Below are positions 7 through 6,659 of a DNA stretch of 6,659 bases, piece after piece. Location: positions 1-6,659 of IMG/VR virus record IMGVR_UViG_2547132270_000010, one strand, 5' to 3'. A model generated the notes under the pieces. The model did no database searches. It saw only the letters and a list, made by a program, of their open reading frames with translations, and had not been told where the DNA came from. This DNA is from a virus (lineage: Duplodnaviria; Heunggongvirae; Uroviricota; Caudoviricetes). The first letter of the stretch is position 1. Each line of letters starts with the position of its first letter. The position numbers were made by a program, and so were the translations under genes.

Positions 7-46
7 AAAAAAAAAAAAAAAAAAACCCCGCCGGTCAAGGCGGTGG
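7..46 (-). terminator. Candidate intrinsic terminator: GC hairpin followed by an unusually long 19-nt U tract
   Basis: On the minus strand, CCGCC (32-28) pairs with GGCGG (43-39) around a 6-nt loop, and is followed by 19 consecutive T (plus-strand A run 7-25). The stem is short but all G/C. Confidence 0.6.
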
Positions 47-423
47 TCAAAAAGGCGCTAAAGCCCGGATTATTTTATTGGAATGTATTAGAGGTGTCGG
101 GTGCCTCCCGAAGTATCAGACAAGACATCAGATACTGTGGTCTCCCGCTAAACAATTATTTAAACCACCCTCGCACTGAGGAACACCTCTGTAGTGTTGC
201 TTACAACACCAGAATGGTGCATCACCGGTTCCTGCCAGGAAATACGAAATTCCCACCGATAATGCACCATTCTACTGTTGTAAAAAATGACACTGGAACC
301 ATAACCAATACCACTGATTACATAGCAGAATGCATTGCAAGTTAGTGACTCTACCAACCGAACTAAGCCGGCGTTAGTTCCCTGAGGGGACAGTATTATT
401 GGTGATAAGCTTCCCCAGAATCA
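26..423 (-). ncRNA. Candidate structured non-coding RNA of about 400 nt, identity unknown
   Basis: Bounded by the candidate promoter and the strong terminator. It has no credible ORF: the only two in the track start at weak codons, lack a ribosome-binding site and overlap each other on opposite strands. It contains a 22-bp imperfect inverted repeat (201-222 with 262-283, 20/22), a 7-bp stem hairpin at 360-380 and several smaller dyads. G+C looks intermediate, unlike the AT-rich DNA beside it. Confidence 0.3.
201..283. repeat. 22-bp imperfect inverted repeat (20/22) with a 39-bp spacer that itself contains the palindrome TTCCTG-C-CAGGAA
   Basis: TTACAACACCAGAATGGTGCAT at 201-222 is the reverse complement of ATGCACCATTCTACTGTTGTAA at 262-283 except for two adjacent positions. 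The spacer 223-261 contains TTCCTGCCAGGAA. Confidence 0.8.
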
Positions 424-429
424 TTGTTT

Positions 430-457
430 ATCATACAGTTAAATGACTTAATCGCAA
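430..457 (-). promoter_or_regulatory. Candidate sigma70 promoter driving leftward transcription
   Basis: On the minus strand, TTGCGA (457-452), a 16-nt spacer, then TATGAT (435-430). That is 4/6 and 5/6 matches to the consensus hexamers. The predicted start is near 423, pointing at the terminator at 7-46. Confidence 0.35.
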
Positions 458-778
458 TAAATTGCAATGTCATAATTTGTAAATGTATATATATTTTCTT
501 ATTTTACACCAATGTACGCATCAGCATATAAATAAATTTATTTTGTCCGTGATTATAAAGAGGATAAGCTTTTAATCATGATGCAAAAAAAACAAAAGTT
601 GCTCAGTACAGAAGGTATCAGTACAAGCATGTGTTATGACCACTTATTATTAAAAGTGATTAGATAAATTAAATTTTAATGTTATGAAAGTTTGTCGCTT
701 TGCCATAGCATTTTGTTAGAAAAATTCCGACAGGAATAACGACACTAATAGCCATTAATTATTTTAAGGTAGTAAAAT

Positions 779-865
779 ATGGAAAATAATAAATCTGCAC
801 ACTATGCACCTTTTTTATCGATAATTCTTTTTGTTTGTTGTTTTATTTGGGCATTATTTTTATAA
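779..865 (+). CDS. Hypothetical 28-aa small hydrophobic peptide (speculative)
   Basis: ATG at 779 with AAGG 9 nt upstream. It encodes MENNKSAHYAPFLSIILFVCCFIWALFL, a polar N-terminus followed by an 18-residue hydrophobic stretch, then a TAA stop. It is too short to appear in the ORF track. AT-rich DNA produces such ORFs by chance, hence the low confidence. Confidence 0.15.
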   Translation: MENNKSAHYAPFLSIILFVCCFIWALFL

Positions 866-875
866 AAATAAATTT

Positions 876-916
876 CAAAAAACAATCCACTGAAAAAACT
901 CCAGTAATGAGTGGAT
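876..916 (-). terminator. Weak candidate minus-strand terminator: 7-bp stem, 18-nt loop, then a U6 tract
   Basis: ATCCACT (885-891) and AGTGGAT (910-916) form an inverted repeat. On the minus strand the hairpin is followed by TGTTTTTTG (plus-strand A run 877-882). The loop is large, so function is uncertain. Confidence 0.2.
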
Positions 917-1340
917 GAAAAACAGGCATAGTGTTTTGTGATCGACTACTTTGTATAACCAATTTAATCGGCACATCTCTATGCCTGCGCGCCGGGTATA
1001 TCAAAATATCTCTCGTAATGTGTTAAATCACTTCGCAAATACCACCAAAATACTTTACTAAATGCCAGCATTGCGCTCATTAATGATACGTCGCTGATAC
1101 TAATATGTATCGGAAGTTAACAAAAATGCAGTTCAGCGGTAATCCTTCAACTTTTCGCGAAATCCGAAGCCTTGTCGGGCGACTGTATAGAAATACTTAT
1201 GGCGAGGAATTTGCTCAGCAACTCTCTGAGGGTACATAGAAGAAGGCGACGAGAATGTATCCTGATGAGAGAAAAACGTACGTGCAGATCTGATTTTTAC
1301 GTAAATGGATTGTTAAATATATTTTGGTTGTGATATAACC

Positions 1341-1427
1341 AAAAGAGACCGAATACAGAAATTCGAGTAAATTTCGGGGAGATGCCCGTAACACATTGAT
1401 TTTTAATATTAATAAAAAGAGACCGAA
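1341..1427. repeat. Two identical 13-bp direct repeats AAAAGAGACCGAA, 74 bp apart start to start
   Basis: Exact copies at 1341-1353 and 1415-1427. A related motif AAATTTCGGG occurs at about 1369-1378 and 1573-1582. Confidence 0.8.
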
Positions 1428-1693
1428 AACGATTCCTGTTTTCGTCAACAAACAAGAAACCCTTTTTAAATTAATGTGTTAAGCAAAATTACGCTCATCT
1501 TTTAATCCCAAACACGTACCATTGCATATTAATGCATTCAATTAGTTACCATTTTTTTCGAGTTTTTTAGAGAAAATTTCGGGACTATTTCAGACCAATC
1601 CAGGCAGAAATAAGCAATCTATGAGTTGAATAATTTCTCAACAATTATGTAAGATTATTTCCGGCTGACTTTCATTCAGTTTCGCATTATCGA

Positions 1694-1739
1694 ACGTACG
1701 TCAGCCATCTGCGGCACGTTCTTGCATACGACGTGCCGC
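1694..1739. repeat. GC-rich 9-bp-arm inverted repeat with 11-nt loop, preceded by the palindrome ACGTACGT
   Basis: GCGGCACGT (1711-1719) and ACGTGCCGC (1731-1739) are exact reverse complements. ACGTACGT sits at 1694-1701. On the plus strand the downstream sequence AGCTTCTATTATT is only moderately U-rich, so this could be a weak plus-strand terminator or a protein-binding site. Confidence 0.5.
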
Positions 1740-2000
1740 AGCTTCTATTATTCCAGCATAAAATTCCTAACCAACTTCAAATCCTCTGGATTATTCAACT
1801 CATCCTTCATTTTCCGCCTTTTGGCCTCCTGCTGCTGCGATAAGTTCCGGCGTGACGGTAAACGGGGCACCTTCGCCCCATTTACCGCTCTGCAACTCCT
1901 GCTAAACGGAGTAAACGAGCATTCTATCGCCATAGGTGCAAATCGTGAGCCGAGGTAAGTCTTGTAACTTCGCAATTTTTTTATTGGCTAACTGACGCGC

Positions 2001-2040
2001 AATTCTGGATGACTCCAGCGCGCTCAAAAAGTCCAGAATT
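2001..2040. promoter_or_regulatory. Composite dyad-symmetric site just after the stop codon of the 992-aa gene
   Basis: Outer arms AATTCTGGA (2001-2009) and TCCAGAATT (2032-2040) are exact reverse complements. The inner palindrome AGCGCGCT (2017-2024) shares the same centre of symmetry (2020.5). No U tract follows on either strand, so it is not a classic intrinsic terminator. Confidence 0.4.
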
Positions 2041-2056
2041 GAGCGTAAATTTAACT

Positions 2057-5035
2057 TCAAGCCATGCCGTTCTGGCGTAACGTAGTCCCCGCAAATACTT
2101 TCACTAACAAGACACAAGGCAATGCCCCATTATCTGCACTGGCTGTATCTTCCAGCGTGGACATATCCAGCGCATAGTATGGGATATCAGGCATAACAAT
2201 CTGAATTTTGATTGTTATGGTGCTGGCAGTTGCAGAAACAGAACTGACAAAATACTGAGCCGGGATATATTGTCGGCTCTGGTTCTGGTAGAGGTAGCGA
2301 GGTTCGACTATAGCGGAAACAGCGATACCAACCCCGCCAACCGAAGATTTTTTAATGGGGTTAGATACATCCAGAGTCATTGTGTAAACGCGGGAACCAT
2401 CCGGCAGGCTCTTAAATGAACTCAGGCTGCTGTTAAGTGTGCTTACTACTACCTTCGGAATTACAGGATGAGTGCCGTCAACAAGCAGTGTTTCTGATTG
2501 TTCTTTCAGCAAATTTGTTGCCGCCGTGGAAATGACAGGAGCATGGTTTCTGCACCACATCTGCATGGTGGCATTGTATGTAAATGTAATGGCCTTTCCT
2601 GCAAATATCGCTTCCGGTGCATCTGAAATCTGCACATCCTGCGTAAGGAAGGAGGTTCGTGTAACATCCTCTTTCGGTATGATTGACAGACGGCAACCAT
2701 CAACCAGACCAGGCATTATCCTGAACTGAAGATAAGAAAGCGCGGAATCGCTATCAATAAACAGCACCGTGTCACTGTTAATCGTATCCACCACTACCTG
2801 TGCGTTATTTGCGGGTTTGATATGCCGGATATTTCTTTCAGGAAAGGTAATATCTCCGCCCTCAATAACTGAACGGCCATTTATTCGCATAAAATCACGC
2901 GCGCTCATACGGGGAACGGTTCCCCATGACGAAACAGACATTGCCGCTGTAATATCTGAAATCGTTATAGCTGCCGTTTTTCTTATTTGCAGACGGCGAA
3001 GTGCTGTTGTTGCCGCAGTCTGGGAGGCAGTCACTTTGGCCACGAACGCAAAAAAGTCGCTCATGGCGAAAGTATCAATGCCTGCATAATCAGACGTGAA
3101 CAAATCGGGATATGCCCGCTGTATGGCATCAAGAACAGGCAGGCCATACTGTTCCTGTTCTGCAAGTGTACCCAGAACACCAAAACGCCACGGCGCAACA
3201 GAAAAACGGTCTTTTTGCACAAACCGGTCATTACTGGGTTCATCCGGGTAATCAGACTCGTCATAATAAGTCTTAAATCTGCTCTGGGCAGGAACAAACA
3301 GACCCAGCAGTCCTTGTTTGATGGTTTTCATTGTGGCTTCATATTGCGATACAGCCTCAGAATCATTAACCAGTCCGGCAAGAAAAACCAGGGCACGCAA
3401 TCCAGCCCAGACTTCAGCATTATCCTGACAAAAACATTGCGCATAGTGAGTATTACCGGGCGCAATATCCCCCTGAAAAACATTAACCAGATTTGCCTTA
3501 ACATTAATCTGGCGCAGAATATTATGTTCCGCTACCTGCCTGATTACATGCCATCTGGAATAATCACCGATTCCAGAAGATGCTGATAACCACGGCGCGT
3601 CGGCAATTTCAGCAATGCAGGCAAACCACAGGGACGGATAACTGTCTGTGGAATCCGGTGCCACAGGAGAGTATAAGTCGGCGGCAACATCAACAAAAAA
3701 CCATGACCATGATGACGGGATTTGTTTTTCAGTATTTCCGAGGCACTCAAGAACGACGGAGCCGGTATACACAAACTCACCACGGGATACATTGCTGACA
3801 TCAGGCACGTTTTTCCCTGTAACGCCTGCAACGTTTACGAAAAGGAGTTTGTCATCAATCATCAGACGCTGCCCCGCCTCATAGCGGCTTTCAGGCATAA
3901 ACGGAACAGTTATCCCGAGTCTGAATGCTTTTTCACAAATAACGAGCCTGTCCCTGAGAGAAAAGGCTTTACCCTCACTTTCATACATCGCAAGGAACAA
4001 AAAATACCAGTTAATTCCCCCTGTCGGATTAAGATAACGCCATATCCCGGAATAACGGCCTTCAGTTATTTGCATTGCCAGAAACTGCTTATTGGCTTCG
4101 GTGACAGAATAACGGGTGGAGACAGCAAGATGATCACTGATAAACCCTCTTACGCTGTCTGCTGCCATTTCCGCATCTTTGGCGCTCTGAGCTGATTCTT
4201 CTGCGTTTTGCCCTGATAATCTGACGTCTTCTGCCGTGGCGTTTCGATCTTCAGCTGTTGCTGCCGCGTTTTTTCGGGCTTCATCTGCAAAACGACTGGC
4301 TTCATCTCTGGCTTCAATTGCAGCCTGTGAATCTATGGCTGTTTGTTGCGCATTCTGTTGTGTATTCTGCGCGTACTGCTGCGCCTGCTGTTCACTTATA
4401 GCTGCATTATCTGCACAGTTTTTTGATTTCCCGGCACTGGTTTCTGCGTTTTCTGCCGCATCCTGCGCTGCTTTTACTGCTTCATGAACATCCTTAACAT
4501 CCTGTTGTATCTGTGACGCATTTTCTGACACCTCTGCTGCCAGTTGTTCGACCTGTCGTTTATTTTCTTCGATTGCAACTGAAGCCTGTCCGACTTTATC
4601 CGCCAGCTCTTGTGTGCATTTTTTAGCGTTTTCTGCACTGGCTGCATGCTTTTTGGCTTCATCTGCATTTTCTGCCGCAATTTCAGCACTTTGTTCAACC
4701 TGTGCCACCATCGCCTCGAAACGCTTAACCACGTCTGGCTTTAAATCGTCTTCGTCAAAAACTGTTAAAAAATCATTCAGTGTACCGGGGGTTGATTCTG
4801 GATAAACCGTGATATGACCAACACAGTACTCGTCGCGCCAGTCCTGTTTCAGATATACACAGTATTTCCCGGTCTGTGCTTCAAATGAATATTCACCGTC
4901 AGCGCCCGTTACCACGTCAGCAACAGTGCGCATCACCACTTCTGAGGTGTTTACCCGGGATTTCAGAATTATGTGGCATCCGGACATGGGGATGCCTGCG
5001 CCATCAATCAGCGCACCAGAAATTATAGCGGACAT
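2057..5035 (-). CDS. Side tail fibre / tailspike-like receptor-binding protein: Stf-type N-terminal domain, Ala/Glu-rich coiled-coil repeats, large unassigned C-terminal domain
   Basis: 992-aa ORF with ATG at 5033-5035, GGAG 7 nt upstream, TGA stop at 2057-2059. The N-terminus (MSAIISGALIDGAGIPMSGCHIILKSRVNTSEVV...GHITVYPESTPGTLNDFL) closely resembles the N-terminal tail-attachment domain of lambda-family Stf proteins such as Rac StfR, recalled from memory. Residues about 100-300 are low-complexity AENA/AQQ-type helical repeats. The C-terminal roughly 690 aa are not a typical Gly-rich fibre repeat. Confidence 0.85.
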   Translation of the reverse strand: MSAIISGALIDGAGIPMSGCHIILKSRVNTSEVVMRTVADVVTGADGEYSFEAQTGKYCVYLKQDWRDEYCVGHITVYPESTPGTLNDFLTVFDEDDLKPDVVKRFEAMVAQVEQSAEIAAENADEAKKHAASAENAKKCTQELADKVGQASVAIEENKRQVEQLAAEVSENASQIQQDVKDVHEAVKAAQDAAENAETSAGKSKNCADNAAISEQQAQQYAQNTQQNAQQTAIDSQAAIEARDEASRFADEARKNAAATAEDRNATAEDVRLSGQNAEESAQSAKDAEMAADSVRGFISDHLAVSTRYSVTEANKQFLAMQITEGRYSGIWRYLNPTGGINWYFLFLAMYESEGKAFSLRDRLVICEKAFRLGITVPFMPESRYEAGQRLMIDDKLLFVNVAGVTGKNVPDVSNVSRGEFVYTGSVVLECLGNTEKQIPSSWSWFFVDVAADLYSPVAPDSTDSYPSLWFACIAEIADAPWLSASSGIGDYSRWHVIRQVAEHNILRQINVKANLVNVFQGDIAPGNTHYAQCFCQDNAEVWAGLRALVFLAGLVNDSEAVSQYEATMKTIKQGLLGLFVPAQSRFKTYYDESDYPDEPSNDRFVQKDRFSVAPWRFGVLGTLAEQEQYGLPVLDAIQRAYPDLFTSDYAGIDTFAMSDFFAFVAKVTASQTAATTALRRLQIRKTAAITISDITAAMSVSSWGTVPRMSARDFMRINGRSVIEGGDITFPERNIRHIKPANNAQVVVDTINSDTVLFIDSDSALSYLQFRIMPGLVDGCRLSIIPKEDVTRTSFLTQDVQISDAPEAIFAGKAITFTYNATMQMWCRNHAPVISTAATNLLKEQSETLLVDGTHPVIPKVVVSTLNSSLSSFKSLPDGSRVYTMTLDVSNPIKKSSVGGVGIAVSAIVEPRYLYQNQSRQYIPAQYFVSSVSATASTITIKIQIVMPDIPYYALDMSTLEDTASADNGALPCVLLVKVFAGTTLRQNGMA

Positions 5036-5054: not shown

Positions 5055-5489
5055 TTAACCAGAATGCGGAATATTATTTGAAGGTTTATCCGGCCATTCC
5101 GGTTTTTCTGTATTAACCCTGCTCACATGCACACTGTAACGCGCCCATAACTCCAGCATTTCTCGCTCAGCATCAGTAGCCATACCAAGTTTTACGGCTC
5201 GCTCCAGTGGTAATATAATAGATTCTGCTTCTGCCAGAAGTTTGGATTTCTGCCTCTCTGCTTGTTCTGTTAATTCTTCCCGAGTTGGCAGCTCTGGCTC
5301 TGTCACTACTGGCTGACCATATTCATTCGGGTTAATGGTTTTACCTTCTGATTGCTTATCCAAGAGATAACGATACCAGCGTTCTGATATTTCCAGAACA
5401 TCATCCGGCCATGTGCCATTAATATCATAATCACTTCTCAGACTGTCATCATAAAAACTATTTTCTGATGAGCTGTAATAAATCGCCAT
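5055..5489 (-). CDS. tfa: Tail fibre assembly protein (Tfa-type chaperone)
   Basis: 144-aa ORF starting at ATG 5487-5489, 1 nt after the upstream tail-fibre TAA (TAA-T-ATG coupling). The C-terminal motif [33 protein letters not shown] matches the conserved C-terminus of lambda Tfa as I recall it (...[28 protein letters not shown]). Size and position are typical. Confidence 0.85.
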
Positions 5490-5490
5490 A

Positions 5491-6659
5491 TTAGTAACCT
5501 ATAGCTGTCCAGTACATATGTCCGTTATTTTCGCTGTTAAAAGTTGCACCTGTCCTTGATAAGGATTTTACCGAGATAGAATAATCGGCGCGGGTATGTG
5601 CGTTGGTAATAGTAATACTGGTGCATGCTGACGGAAATGCTGTCGGAAAAGTAAGACCTGCCCCGGCGTTACTGAGATACCCCCACTGCGTAATAATTCC
5701 GGTTGACGCATCTTTGTGCCAGCCATTTGCTGCTTTTGATGCGGTGTTTTTAGCCTGATAACGGGCATCTGACTCCGCTTTCGTATAGGAATTTCCAGTT
5801 CTTAAATATCTGGAGTCGAAGTTACCATAATCAGAAGGGTTAACACGCCCGGTAACATTAATTGTTTTATTGCTTTGAATACCGCCACTGGTAAAACGGA
5901 GTACATGCTGCCCATTGGCATAAACATCTAGGACACCATCCCCGTTCTGCTTAAAACCTGTGTCATTGTCTCCGAGAGCAATTGAGTTACCCCCCAGCGC
6001 GTTCTGAACACCGATACCCAGCGCACCATTCACCTGAGAACCGCCGCCAACAGACACTTTATGCGACATGGATATTTCACCAGTCCGCAGATTAATAGTG
6101 AACGGGCGAAGTGGACCAATATCACCACTCTCGCCCTGATTTTCCCGAGTAGGAATGAGATGCAGGCACTCTTCCGAACGACGAAAAATAAGGCCAAAAG
6201 CCTCGTTAAAAATCCTCAGCGCATTAACGCCGCGAATTTTCAACTCTCCGGTCATCAAATCACCAGACTTTTTTACATACCTCTGATCAAAATCTGAATA
6301 AATATTGCCGGGATTTATCACGCTAAAATAGCTTTTCTCACTATCAAGAAGACAAATCAAGGGAATGCCTTTAATGATATCGTTCGCTACCAGTCTGGAT
6401 TTGTTTCCCTTATAAAGTGGGAACGTACCAAGAACCTTTCCGCCTAGTGTTAGTTGAAGTGTCGCCGCGTTGGTATTGTTCTGAACGGGGAAAACGATAA
6501 TCGGGGTTCGTAGCGTCCAATCTGTACCTCCATTAACAAAAAACGTCGAGGGAAGTTCCAGCGTCAGTGCGTTTGCAGTGCCACCAGCAACACCCGCAAT
6601 ATAATGGCCGCTCTGAAGCTGCGCTATCTGTACGAAATAGTTTTCCGAACCACGCGTGG
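5491..6659 (-). CDS. Phage tail fibre protein, C-terminal portion; 5' end lies beyond the window edge
   Basis: The minus-strand frame stays open from the window edge (6659) to a TAA stop at 5491-5493. The 289-aa ORF in the track starts at an internal TTG; the same frame reads without stops upstream (...[29 protein letters not shown]...). The Gly/Ser/Asn-rich beta-type composition and the [11 protein letters not shown] motif are typical of distal tail-fibre segments in lambda Stf, P2 H and Mu S type proteins. The stop is 1 nt from the start of a tail-fibre assembly gene. Confidence 0.8.

Follow-up and report, generated by a model that had tools for sequence, protein, structure and literature searches.

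The AT-rich stretch at 360-2056, beside the tail-fibre genes, is very probably a scar zone in which at least four mobile elements have been nested in or joined to one another, and which serves no collective function. The contributors are a decayed lambda-like prophage, an insertion sequence (IS), the end of a P27-like prophage and a Mu-like transposable phage. Judged by homology, nearly all bases of the stretch are traceable to known parts of such elements; homologues were found for neither the 39 nt at 604-642 nor the approximately 20 nt at 871-889. The gap is ordinary debris of elements that inserted into, and were deleted from, one another. The window, that is, the whole stretch of DNA analysed, is an entire draft contig of 6659 bp, and pphA, yebY and the rest of the prophages would lie beyond it. 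With identities of 78-98% to E. coli, its source is presumably an Escherichia. The same combination of junctions was absent from the other genomes searched, and no E. coli genome covered 80% or more of positions 1-2200.

An earlier note, made from the sequence of the window, had described the region as AT-rich, without a credible gene and lacking any recognisable domain. The composition is as it said: G+C in 200-nt windows is 0.255-0.42 over about 400-1700, versus 0.44-0.52 in the flanking tail-fibre genes. The ORFs that it listed (1215-1451, 1722-1958, 1748-1975 and 1902-2117) are likewise real, start at TTG and overlap each other or the big gene. As to credible genes, the ORF list holds no intact gene of conventional size within 360-2056, but the small ORF 779-865 is conserved and bears a coding signature. 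Recognisable domains do occur, namely an integrase C-terminus, pieces of DUF4376 and a frameshifted N-terminus of an IS4-family transposase (981-1117). Together with a tRNA-Thr, these make four pseudogene remnants. The suggestion of a decayed cargo gene was therefore right about decay but not about cargo, since all the remnants are core mobile-element genes and none is a cargo, effector or defence gene. A frameshifted known gene and conserved non-coding phage DNA, the two findings that the note itself had said would speak against its reading, are both present in the region.

The leftmost part of the window retains pieces of a lambdoid late region. A late-operon leader occupies 12-332 on the minus strand, outside 360-2056 but in the same decayed prophage. 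In related prophages this segment separates the phage tRNA genes from the holin gene, and it shares 80% identity with a prophage of E. coli TUM9757 (L005, 5001-5315) and 78-83% with the loci L003 and L007. A terminator scan found that the leader ends in a terminator-like hairpin with a T-run (43->25). The ORF 43-345, a gene call in the assembly, was considered and rejected: the open frame is lost in eight distinct homologues, and it has no Pfam, NCBIfam or PHROGs match. Beside the leader, 334-372 (minus strand) matches the beginning of tRNA-Thr in L005 and L007 and represents the 5′ 39 nt of that phage gene, the 3′ half of which has been deleted along with the adjoining tRNA-Gly. ARAGORN detected no complete tRNA in the window, and Rfam gave no tRNA match at E<=1. 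Alignment with L005 and L007 identified 373-603 (minus strand) as the DNA lying just downstream of the antiterminator gene Q in related phages; blastn pieces at 334-506 and 511-545 match related prophages. It contains a conserved promoter-like site, TTGCGA-16-TATGAT (457->430, promoter scan), which from its position is probably pR′. The 39 nt at 604-642 are a junction filler without assigned strand, at a place where relatives carry a DUF1367-DUF1364-DUF1133(Q) cassette of about 1.6-1.8 kb; L005 (5686 and 7483) and L007 both show a spacing of about 1.8 kb between the flanking blocks. The ORF 578-667 loses its frame in relatives and matches nothing in Pfam, NCBIfam or PHROGs. The order relative to Q, the tRNAs and holin was compared with E. 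coli prophages and phage 683R6. The non-coding blocks and tRNA-Thr share the order and orientation of the lambdoid Q - pR′ - phage tRNAs - lysis genes arrangement, whereas the Q cassette is absent here, tRNA-Thr is halved and tRNA-Gly is missing.

Next to the filler lies a conserved lambdoid module with a small gene (643-870, plus strand). Of 5426 complete E. coli genomes, 1176 carry it at 75-80% identity. The module adjoins the DUF1367-Q cassette in all six loci whose context was read, and among the 40 matches listed none has an annotated feature under it. It has a promoter-like site, TTAGAT-17-TATGAA, at 660-688 with a TG upstream, a 5′ UTR of about 85 nt and a Shine-Dalgarno-like AAGGT at 766-770. 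The latter is covered by a conserved helix that is 96% paired and shows two compensatory pairs. In relatives a terminator follows the module; in this window it has been replaced by the IS. The ORF at 779-865 would encode a hydrophobic peptide of 28 aa, MENNKSAHYAPFLSIILFVCCFIWALFL, with a polar N-terminus and a hydrophobic tail of 19 residues. All 28 codons are kept in each of the 126 copies examined. The pN/pS ratio, which comes from 16 related haplotypes and has limited power, is 0.30 in the coding frame versus 1.02 and 0.73 in the other two; for that half of the ORF which is free of search-pattern constraint it is 0.32. We regard ORF 779-865 as the sole intact coding candidate of the stretch, conserved and never annotated.

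Further right, an IS10-like insertion sequence of the IS4 family is represented by its left end at 890-1117 (plus strand), with the terminus CTGAAAAAACTCCAGTAATGAG. IS homology begins exactly at the CTGA terminus, and DNA identity is 72-73% to IS4-family elements of a Klebsiella plasmid (L008) and of E. coli A10 (L003). The transposase starts at 981 and has about 46 codons left, with a 1-nt frameshift and the remainder deleted; its conceptual translation is 54% identical to the N-terminus of an IS4-family transposase over 48 aa (E=1e-12). The element is a fragment of 228 bp with the left terminus only and no right end, in which it differs from a complete IS4-family element with its two terminal inverted repeats and intact DDE transposase. 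It has in common with the IS4 family, to which IS10 belongs, a similar transposase N-terminus, and its CTGA...TAATGA-type terminus would resemble the ends of IS10. Joined directly to the truncated IS are the 61 C-terminal codons of a tyrosine integrase gene (1111-1293, plus strand; tblastn and PHROGs), 64% identical to aa 298-358 of the phage pPE4 integrase over 61 aa (tblastn, E=1e-17). The ORF 1105-1239 corresponds to this integrase C-terminus (phrog_10320 at 3e-14). The remnant is a pseudogene: a stop at 1237-1239 interrupts the frame ahead of the native stop at 1291-1293, the HEIR motif reads REIR and LLGH reads LSEG, and most of the full length of about 358 aa is gone.

Downstream of the integrase remnant, 1294-1747 (no strand assigned) is an attP-type (P-O-P′) region of a P27/pPE4-like phage, as identified by homology of the core and both arms. 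The 33-bp core at 1412-1444 coincides with sdsR (ryeB) at its 3′ end and with an internal stretch of ryeA, 31 of 33 positions being identical to K-12 sdsR/ryeA; the core recurs in part at 1341-1358, and a G+C-rich hairpin occupies 1710-1745. Left of the core is a phage P arm, as in pPE4 and E. coli 12089, unlike the bacterial pphA side found in E. coli ETEC4085, and right of it is a P′ arm that follows pPE4 and is 96% identical to ETEC4085. With phage arms on both sides of the core, this is the attP of an sdsR/ryeB-integrating phage. The ryeA/ryeB (sraC/sdsR) locus is described as a prophage insertion hot spot in PMC7380047, which cites Balbontin et al. (2008, J Bacteriol 190:4075; phage PhiW104). 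The prophage end of ETEC4085 is integrated at this hot spot beside pphA, whereas the window has phage DNA in both arms and lacks pphA, yebY and any complete sRNA gene. Over 1114-1817 the window is collinear with int-attP-gp70 in pPE4 (86%) and also with E. coli 12089 (84%). It shares with P27-like, pPE4 and Rac-SA53-type phages the order int - attP - DUF4376 - tail fibre, and between 4900 and 6659 its tail genes match those of P27-like prophages at 88-89% identity; it differs from these phages in that only 61 integrase codons remain, interrupted by a stop, DUF4376 has an internal deletion and is truncated, and the body of the fibre comes from another phage type.

These results bear on the possibility that the region is kept for small functional products, either small proteins or small RNAs such as a phage-borne SdsR/RyeA-like RNA, as the earlier note had suggested in proposing a cluster of such genes. 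We consider this unlikely, although one part of it stands: ORF 779-865 is a conserved 28-codon ORF with its own promoter-like site. That ORF is part of the lambdoid module rather than peculiar to this locus; the other small ORFs, such as 578-667, are not conserved, and the remainder of the region consists of truncated genes. On the RNA side, Rfam matches to RyeA and SdsR at 1410-1513 fell below the gathering scores (SdsR/RyeB 26.4 bits versus 38, RyeA/SraC 27.4 versus 37), the similarity going no further than the 33-bp core plus a terminator hairpin. Over the whole window at E<=1, the models CssrB, RyeA, SdsR, STnc100 (26.7 bits against a gathering score of 47), Hrs1 and mir-2063 all scored below gathering; the matches to the first three are due to a terminator hairpin or the att core. 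Five related loci gave only tRNAs and sok at the gathering threshold. When the remnants and small ORFs were compared with Pfam, NCBIfam and PHROGs, only phrog_10320 (integrase C-terminus) and phrog_1141 (DUF4376/tail) scored, and no similarity emerged to the K-12 Qin prophage or to the small proteins known from it, YnfS, YnfT, YnfR and YnfU.

The right part of the scar zone consists of a DUF4376 pseudogene, the last gene of P27-like prophages, at 1748-1962 on the minus strand (tblastn against ETEC4085 DUF4376 and pPE4 gp70), and of the end of a Mu-like prophage. ORF 1748-1975 holds DUF4376 aa 167-190 and ORF 1800-1895 holds aa 51-78, with phrog_1141 matched as well; aa 79-166 have been deleted from a gene that when intact would encode about 190 aa. 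The blastn blocks 1412-1810 and 1819-1898 agree with this, about 275 bp being missing between them relative to locus L002. A Trp codon found in relatives just upstream of the ELQSGKW motif is TAG here, and the Mu-like end truncates the gene on its 5′ side. Over the 64 nt at 1899-1962 the resemblance to DUF4376 is only weak. A reading of the whole of 1899-2056 as diverged 5′ DUF4376 sequence was abandoned for 1963-2056 once the Mu-like terminus had been found.

The terminal 94 bp of the Mu-like prophage (right end, 1963-2056, minus strand) start with TGTAACTTCGC and contain two inverted CCAGAAT motifs (2002-2008 and 2033-2039). Four E. coli strains share this terminus with the window, homology beginning at the same TG in each. 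In these strains the end follows a tail-fibre gene and abuts four different truncated host genes: one for an FAD-dependent oxidoreductase beside ydiR/ydiT, one for a sugar ABC-transporter binding protein beside ytfR, an OmpW-family gene and a transketolase gene (tkt). A defined terminus set against unrelated host sequences identifies it as a Mu-like end. The prophages of strains B1172 and AH19B041 encode Mu transposase, an AAA ATPase, Mor and gpT, and the AH19B041 copy, which splits the transketolase gene, is bounded on both sides by a 5-bp duplication, AATAT. With this complete Mu-like prophage of AH19B041 the Mu-like end and tail-fibre gene are 97.8% identical over 2.9 kb. The window shares with AH19B041 and B1172 the identical terminus and the same adjoining fibre gene with unrelated DNA outside; it differs in that no more of the element than its right end and fibre gene can be seen, and in that P27-like genes, unlike those of the two prophages, lie upstream of about 4900. 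The left end of the element and its transposase genes lie outside the contig and may have been lost, and the window stops 4.7 kb into the element. At the intact tail-fibre gene (992 aa, 2057-5035, minus strand), positions 1962-4897 are Mu-like, whereas the N-terminal codons of the gene (about 45) and the genes upstream resemble P27-like prophages. We initially took the tail-fibre genes to be wholly P27-like; on these similarities the fibre gene is apparently a Mu-like/P27-like chimera. As a consequence, prophage-boundary callers would misplace the prophage end. The zone does lie immediately downstream of the tail-fibre genes by position, but the element to which most of the fibre gene belongs ends at 1963.

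The homologies are observed, as are the precise ends of the IS and of the Mu-like element, the att core and the lesions in the pseudogenes; from them we infer the following order of events. A lambdoid prophage A, with its attachment site in sdsR/ryeB, its late genes directed leftward and its integrase at the right end, has decayed; a small deletion would have taken half of tRNA-Thr together with tRNA-Gly, and the Q antiterminator cassette is missing. An IS10-like element would have inserted just after the 28-codon gene of prophage A, and a later deletion may then have fused the IS transposase at about codon 46 to the integrase at about codon 297, with loss of the whole early region. A complete P-O-P′ to the right of the integrase remnant is what would be expected between two prophages integrated in tandem at a single site, and it leads into DUF4376, presumably the end gene of a P27-like prophage B. 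A Mu-like transposable phage would subsequently have inserted into DUF4376, with its right end at 1963, carrying the body of the 992-aa fibre gene. Beyond that point, either the Mu-like prophage may continue rightward, or recombination between the fibre N-terminal domains of the two phages may have deleted the Mu body and left the chimera. The low G+C simply reflects how AT-rich the regulatory and attachment sequences of these phages are.

Another explanation for so composite a sequence would be an assembly chimera, in which prophage repeats were misjoined in a short-read or 454-era draft. The components are multi-copy in E. coli genomes, and the window is a whole draft contig of 6659 bp with a long A-run at one end and a repeated tail gene at the other. 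We nevertheless find this very unlikely: two of the junctions fall exactly at biological termini (the CTGA of the IS and the TG of the Mu-like end), the int-attP-DUF4376 stretch follows a phage genome collinearly for 700 bp, and a similar int-P-O-P′ arrangement exists in closed E. coli chromosomes. Least tenable, and extremely improbable, is the earlier note's placement of the region in the moron or cargo slot of a tail-fibre prophage, with a decayed and possibly H-NS-silenced effector or defence gene: it does have low G+C and adjoin the tail-fibre genes, and related lambdoid prophages carry hokD, DUF1971 and an S8 peptidase beside the 643-870 module, but the slot is unsupported because the Mu-like DNA bearing the body of the fibre gene stops exactly at 1963, everything to the left belongs to other elements, the remnants (integrase, transposase, tRNA and DUF4376) are all core genes, and no defence or effector family was matched in Pfam, PHROGs or NCBIfam.

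Within the scar zone thus preferred as an explanation, ORF 779-865 deserves separate consideration. About one in five complete E. coli genomes carries a relative of this 28-codon ORF, in some cases with hokD next to it. A scan of genome contigs of species representatives found the ORF only in Shigella flexneri and Escherichia ruysiae, and thus gave no evidence of it outside Escherichia/Shigella. The 28-aa ORF has no match in Pfam, NCBIfam or PHROGs, nine variants of the peptide were absent from 15 billion proteins in an exact look-up, and a literature search for the peptide sequence found no paper. Common gene callers apply a 90-nt minimum, and it is probably because of its length of 87 nt, stop included, that the ORF has escaped annotation. 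Enterobacteria have small hydrophobic proteins and type I toxins such as Ibs, ShoB, TisB, ZorO and DinQ. ORF 779-865 is like these in its polar N-terminus and hydrophobic tail, its own promoter-like site, its 5′ helix and its prophage setting, but it has no sequence similarity to any family searched. A type I system pairs a toxic small hydrophobic peptide with a cis- or trans-encoded antisense RNA; no such RNA came to light here, and what the locus displays is the peptide architecture and the helix over the Shine-Dalgarno site. We regard it as an evenly balanced proposition that the ORF and its relatives would constitute a new family of prophage-borne 28-residue membrane peptides, encoded by a moron with its own promoter, Shine-Dalgarno-sequestering 5′ helix and terminator, and possibly acting as a type I-toxin-like or exclusion factor.

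The region provides a worked example that a long, AT-rich, geneless gap beside phage tail genes need not be cargo, since here it can be explained base by base as nested IS, lambdoid, P27-like and Mu-like debris at the known sdsR/ryeB hot spot. Mu-like prophages of the type that ends in the window inactivate host genes in sequenced E. coli strains, and the small ORF of the lambdoid module is a widespread 28-codon prophage gene candidate that is systematically missing from annotation.

In the region between positions 360 and 2056, remnants of mobile elements adjoin one another, and each is of a well-known type. The window makes up the entire contig AEJY01000213.1 of draft assembly GCA_000208505.2. 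The earlier note had described an AT-rich stretch lacking a credible gene, and this descriptive half stands, since G+C in 200-nt windows is 0.255-0.42 across about 400-1700 as against 0.44-0.52 in the tail-fibre genes, the ORFs that it listed are present, start at TTG and overlap one another, and 360-2056 contains no intact gene of conventional size. What fails is the claim that nothing there is recognisable. The low G+C reflects the regulatory and attachment DNA of phages.

The left part, from 1 to about 870, represents a decayed lambdoid prophage with its late genes on the minus strand. A non-coding block at 12-332 (minus strand), ending in a terminator at 43->25 (minus strand), has counterparts of 78-83% identity in phage vB_EcoS-683R6 and in many prophages of E. 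coli, where it lies between the holin gene and the phage tRNA genes, the latter downstream of the antiterminator gene Q; E. coli genomes often hold several copies of this block type. Its similarity to Rfam STnc100 is weak (26.7 bits; gathering score 47); it may act as a late leader or as an sRNA. At the contig start, the run of about 19 A at 7-25, whose precise length is unreliable given the assembly's era, is the T-tail of that minus-strand terminator and probably explains the assembly break there. The 100-aa ORF at 43-345 (plus strand), open from base 1 and annotated in the assembly as a partial gene of 114 aa, lies over the conserved leader of the late operon. It is unlikely to be a gene, because in eight distinct homologous segments the longest same-strand open stretch is just 40-70 aa. 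Alignment to relatives identified 334-372 as the first 39 nt of a phage tRNA-Thr, the remainder of which is absent from the window together with the adjoining tRNA-Gly; ARAGORN reported no tRNA in the window. The sequence from 373 to about 603 aligns with the DNA immediately downstream of Q. Within it, at 457->430, lies a conserved promoter-like site, TTGCGA-16-TATGAT, which judging by its position is probably pR'. In relatives, a DUF1367-DUF1364-DUF1133(Q) cassette puts about 1.8 kb between this block and a further one at 643-870; the window has 39 nt of unmatched sequence instead of the cassette.

To the right of the lambdoid DNA, homology to IS4-family elements of a Klebsiella plasmid and E. 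coli A10 begins exactly at a CTGA terminus at 890, upstream of which the flanks differ. The transposase starts at 981, and its translation through a 1-nt frameshift has 54% identity over 48 aa with the transposase N-terminus. The IS remnant runs at about 1111-1117 into the final 61 codons of a tyrosine integrase, and thus a deletion beginning inside the IS took out the whole early region of the lambdoid prophage. The integrase remnant (64% identity to the integrase of phage vB_Apl-pPE4) carries an in-frame stop, and its HEIR and LLGH motifs are altered.

The segment 1114-1817 is collinear with the int-attP-gp70 region of vB_Apl-pPE4 (86%) and with the closed chromosome of E. coli strain 12089 (84%), and comprises an attachment site at 1294-1747 with phage arms on both sides of its core. 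This core lies at 1412-1444 and agrees in 31 of its 33 positions with the 3' end of K-12 sdsR, a stretch internal to ryeA. A prophage end with 96% identity occupies the same core beside pphA in E. coli ETEC4085. The ryeA/ryeB locus is an insertion hot spot, with an att site in the last 23 bp of ryeB, according to a passage of PMC7380047 citing Balbontin et al. 2008. Since the DNA left of the core is a phage P arm rather than the bacterial side, the configuration is P-O-P', as in a free phage or between tandem prophages. A partial second core copy, AAAAGAGACCGAATACAG, lies at 1341-1358 in the P arm, 74 bp upstream of the core; it is kept in pPE4 and strain 12089 and may be an integrase-binding site. 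Sub-threshold Rfam matches to RyeA, SdsR and CssrB are accounted for by the core and a hairpin at 1710-1745. The same arrangement of int, P-O-P' site and the tail end of another prophage (pinE and tail-fibre genes) occurs in closed E. coli chromosomes (positions 5107-6646 of the strain 12089 locus, L001, and the further matches H2-H5), which suggests that tandem prophages at this type of att site are recurrent; int is frameshifted in strain 12089.

The gene for the DUF4376 protein, which terminates P27-like prophages, persists as two minus-strand blocks corresponding to aa 167-190 (1751-1822) and aa 51-78 (1818-1901) of the relatives' protein. About 275 bp are deleted between them, and a TAG stands where relatives have a Trp codon, just before the conserved ELQSGKW motif. 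Searching E. coli with 1880-2075 gave matches of about 95 bp, set in many unrelated surroundings on the chromosome. Four genomes have this sequence directly after a tail-fibre gene and against a different truncated host gene each time: an FAD-dependent oxidoreductase gene beside ydiR/ydiT, a sugar ABC-transporter binding-protein gene beside ytfR, an OmpW-family gene and a transketolase gene. All four share homology from the same TG of TGTAACTTCGC onward. Mu-like prophages of this type interrupt these host genes in the sequenced E. coli isolates AH19B041, B1172, SA53-3 and C012; those of B1172 and AH19B041 are complete, each splitting a host gene and encoding Mu transposase, an AAA ATPase, Mor, GemA/gp16 and gpT. 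The AH19B041 copy shares 97.8% identity with window 1962-4897; it has a 5-bp duplication on either side and CCAGAAT-type repeats, probably transposase-binding sites, at both ends. Given the shared terminus, the disrupted host genes and the complete relatives, 1963-2056 is the right end of a transposable Mu-like phage that inserted into the DUF4376 gene. DNA left of this end lies outside the element bearing the fibre-gene body, leaving unsupported the earlier note's proposal of a moron slot beside the tail fibres.

Past about 4900 the window no longer matches Mu-like prophages, and P27-like prophages (gene order DUF4376 - fibre - assembly protein - tail protein) match instead. The breakpoint, at about 4897-4905, falls inside the 992-aa tail-fibre gene, which to its left is 97.8% identical to the AH19B041 prophage and to its right, together with the upstream tail genes, 88-89% identical to P27-like prophages; by these comparisons the gene appears to be an intact chimera of two phage types. 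Two directly oriented fibre genes may have recombined through their N-terminal domains, an event that would have deleted the Mu-like body and left the fibre gene chimeric yet intact. This is somewhat more likely than the other possibility, in which a Mu-like prophage carries a tail module of P27 type, because P27-like DNA lies on both sides of the Mu-like patch. That the odd arrangement reflects an assembly chimera is unlikely, since two of the junctions fall on exact element termini.

The sole credible gene in the "gene-less" stretch is a plus-strand ORF at 779-865, encoding MENNKSAHYAPFLSIILFVCCFIWALFL, within the 643-870 module. Of 5426 complete E. coli genomes, 1176 carry this module at 75-80% identity; all six loci whose context was read have it directly upstream of the DUF1367-Q cassette, and no annotated feature underlies any of the 40 matches listed. 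In front of the ORF lie a Shine-Dalgarno-like AAGGT and, some 90 nt upstream, a conserved TTAGAT-17-TATGAA that has a TG extension. In relatives a terminator hairpin follows the ORF, in whose place the IS stands in the window; in E. coli 3PT an IS5 (about 1476-2500 of that locus) lies between the promoter-like site and the ORF, a second independent IS hit on the module. All 126 copies, drawn from E. coli genomes and IMG/VR contigs, have 28 codons with identical start and stop. The 16 distinct haplotypes vary at 29 sites, of which 16 are third codon positions, and pN/pS is 0.30 in frame versus 1.02 and 0.73 in the two alternative frames (0.32 in the half left free by the search pattern). Residues 10-28 are strongly hydrophobic. 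The peptide was not found in a collection of 15 billion proteins, in Pfam, PHROGs or NCBIfam, or by a literature search with its sequence, and among GTDB species representatives the ORF pattern is confined to Shigella flexneri and Escherichia ruysiae. Gene callers usually require at least 90 nt; at 87 nt, stop included, the ORF falls below this minimum, which would explain the missing annotation.

RNAalifold pairs the presumed transcript start with the Shine-Dalgarno region in a conserved 11-bp helix (window about 695-775; alignment columns 6-17 with 67-78). In 12 distinct sequences it is 96% paired (slid controls, 26-54%), with two compensatory pairs and five pairs changed on one side. The predicted helix is similar to those that lock the translation of type I toxin mRNAs, and sequestration of the Shine-Dalgarno region is only hinted at, because the same sequences served to derive the structure and the position of the transcription start was a guess. 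The ORF belongs to the lambdoid module and is not specific to the locus studied here; conserved and unannotated, it is the only lead with some novelty.
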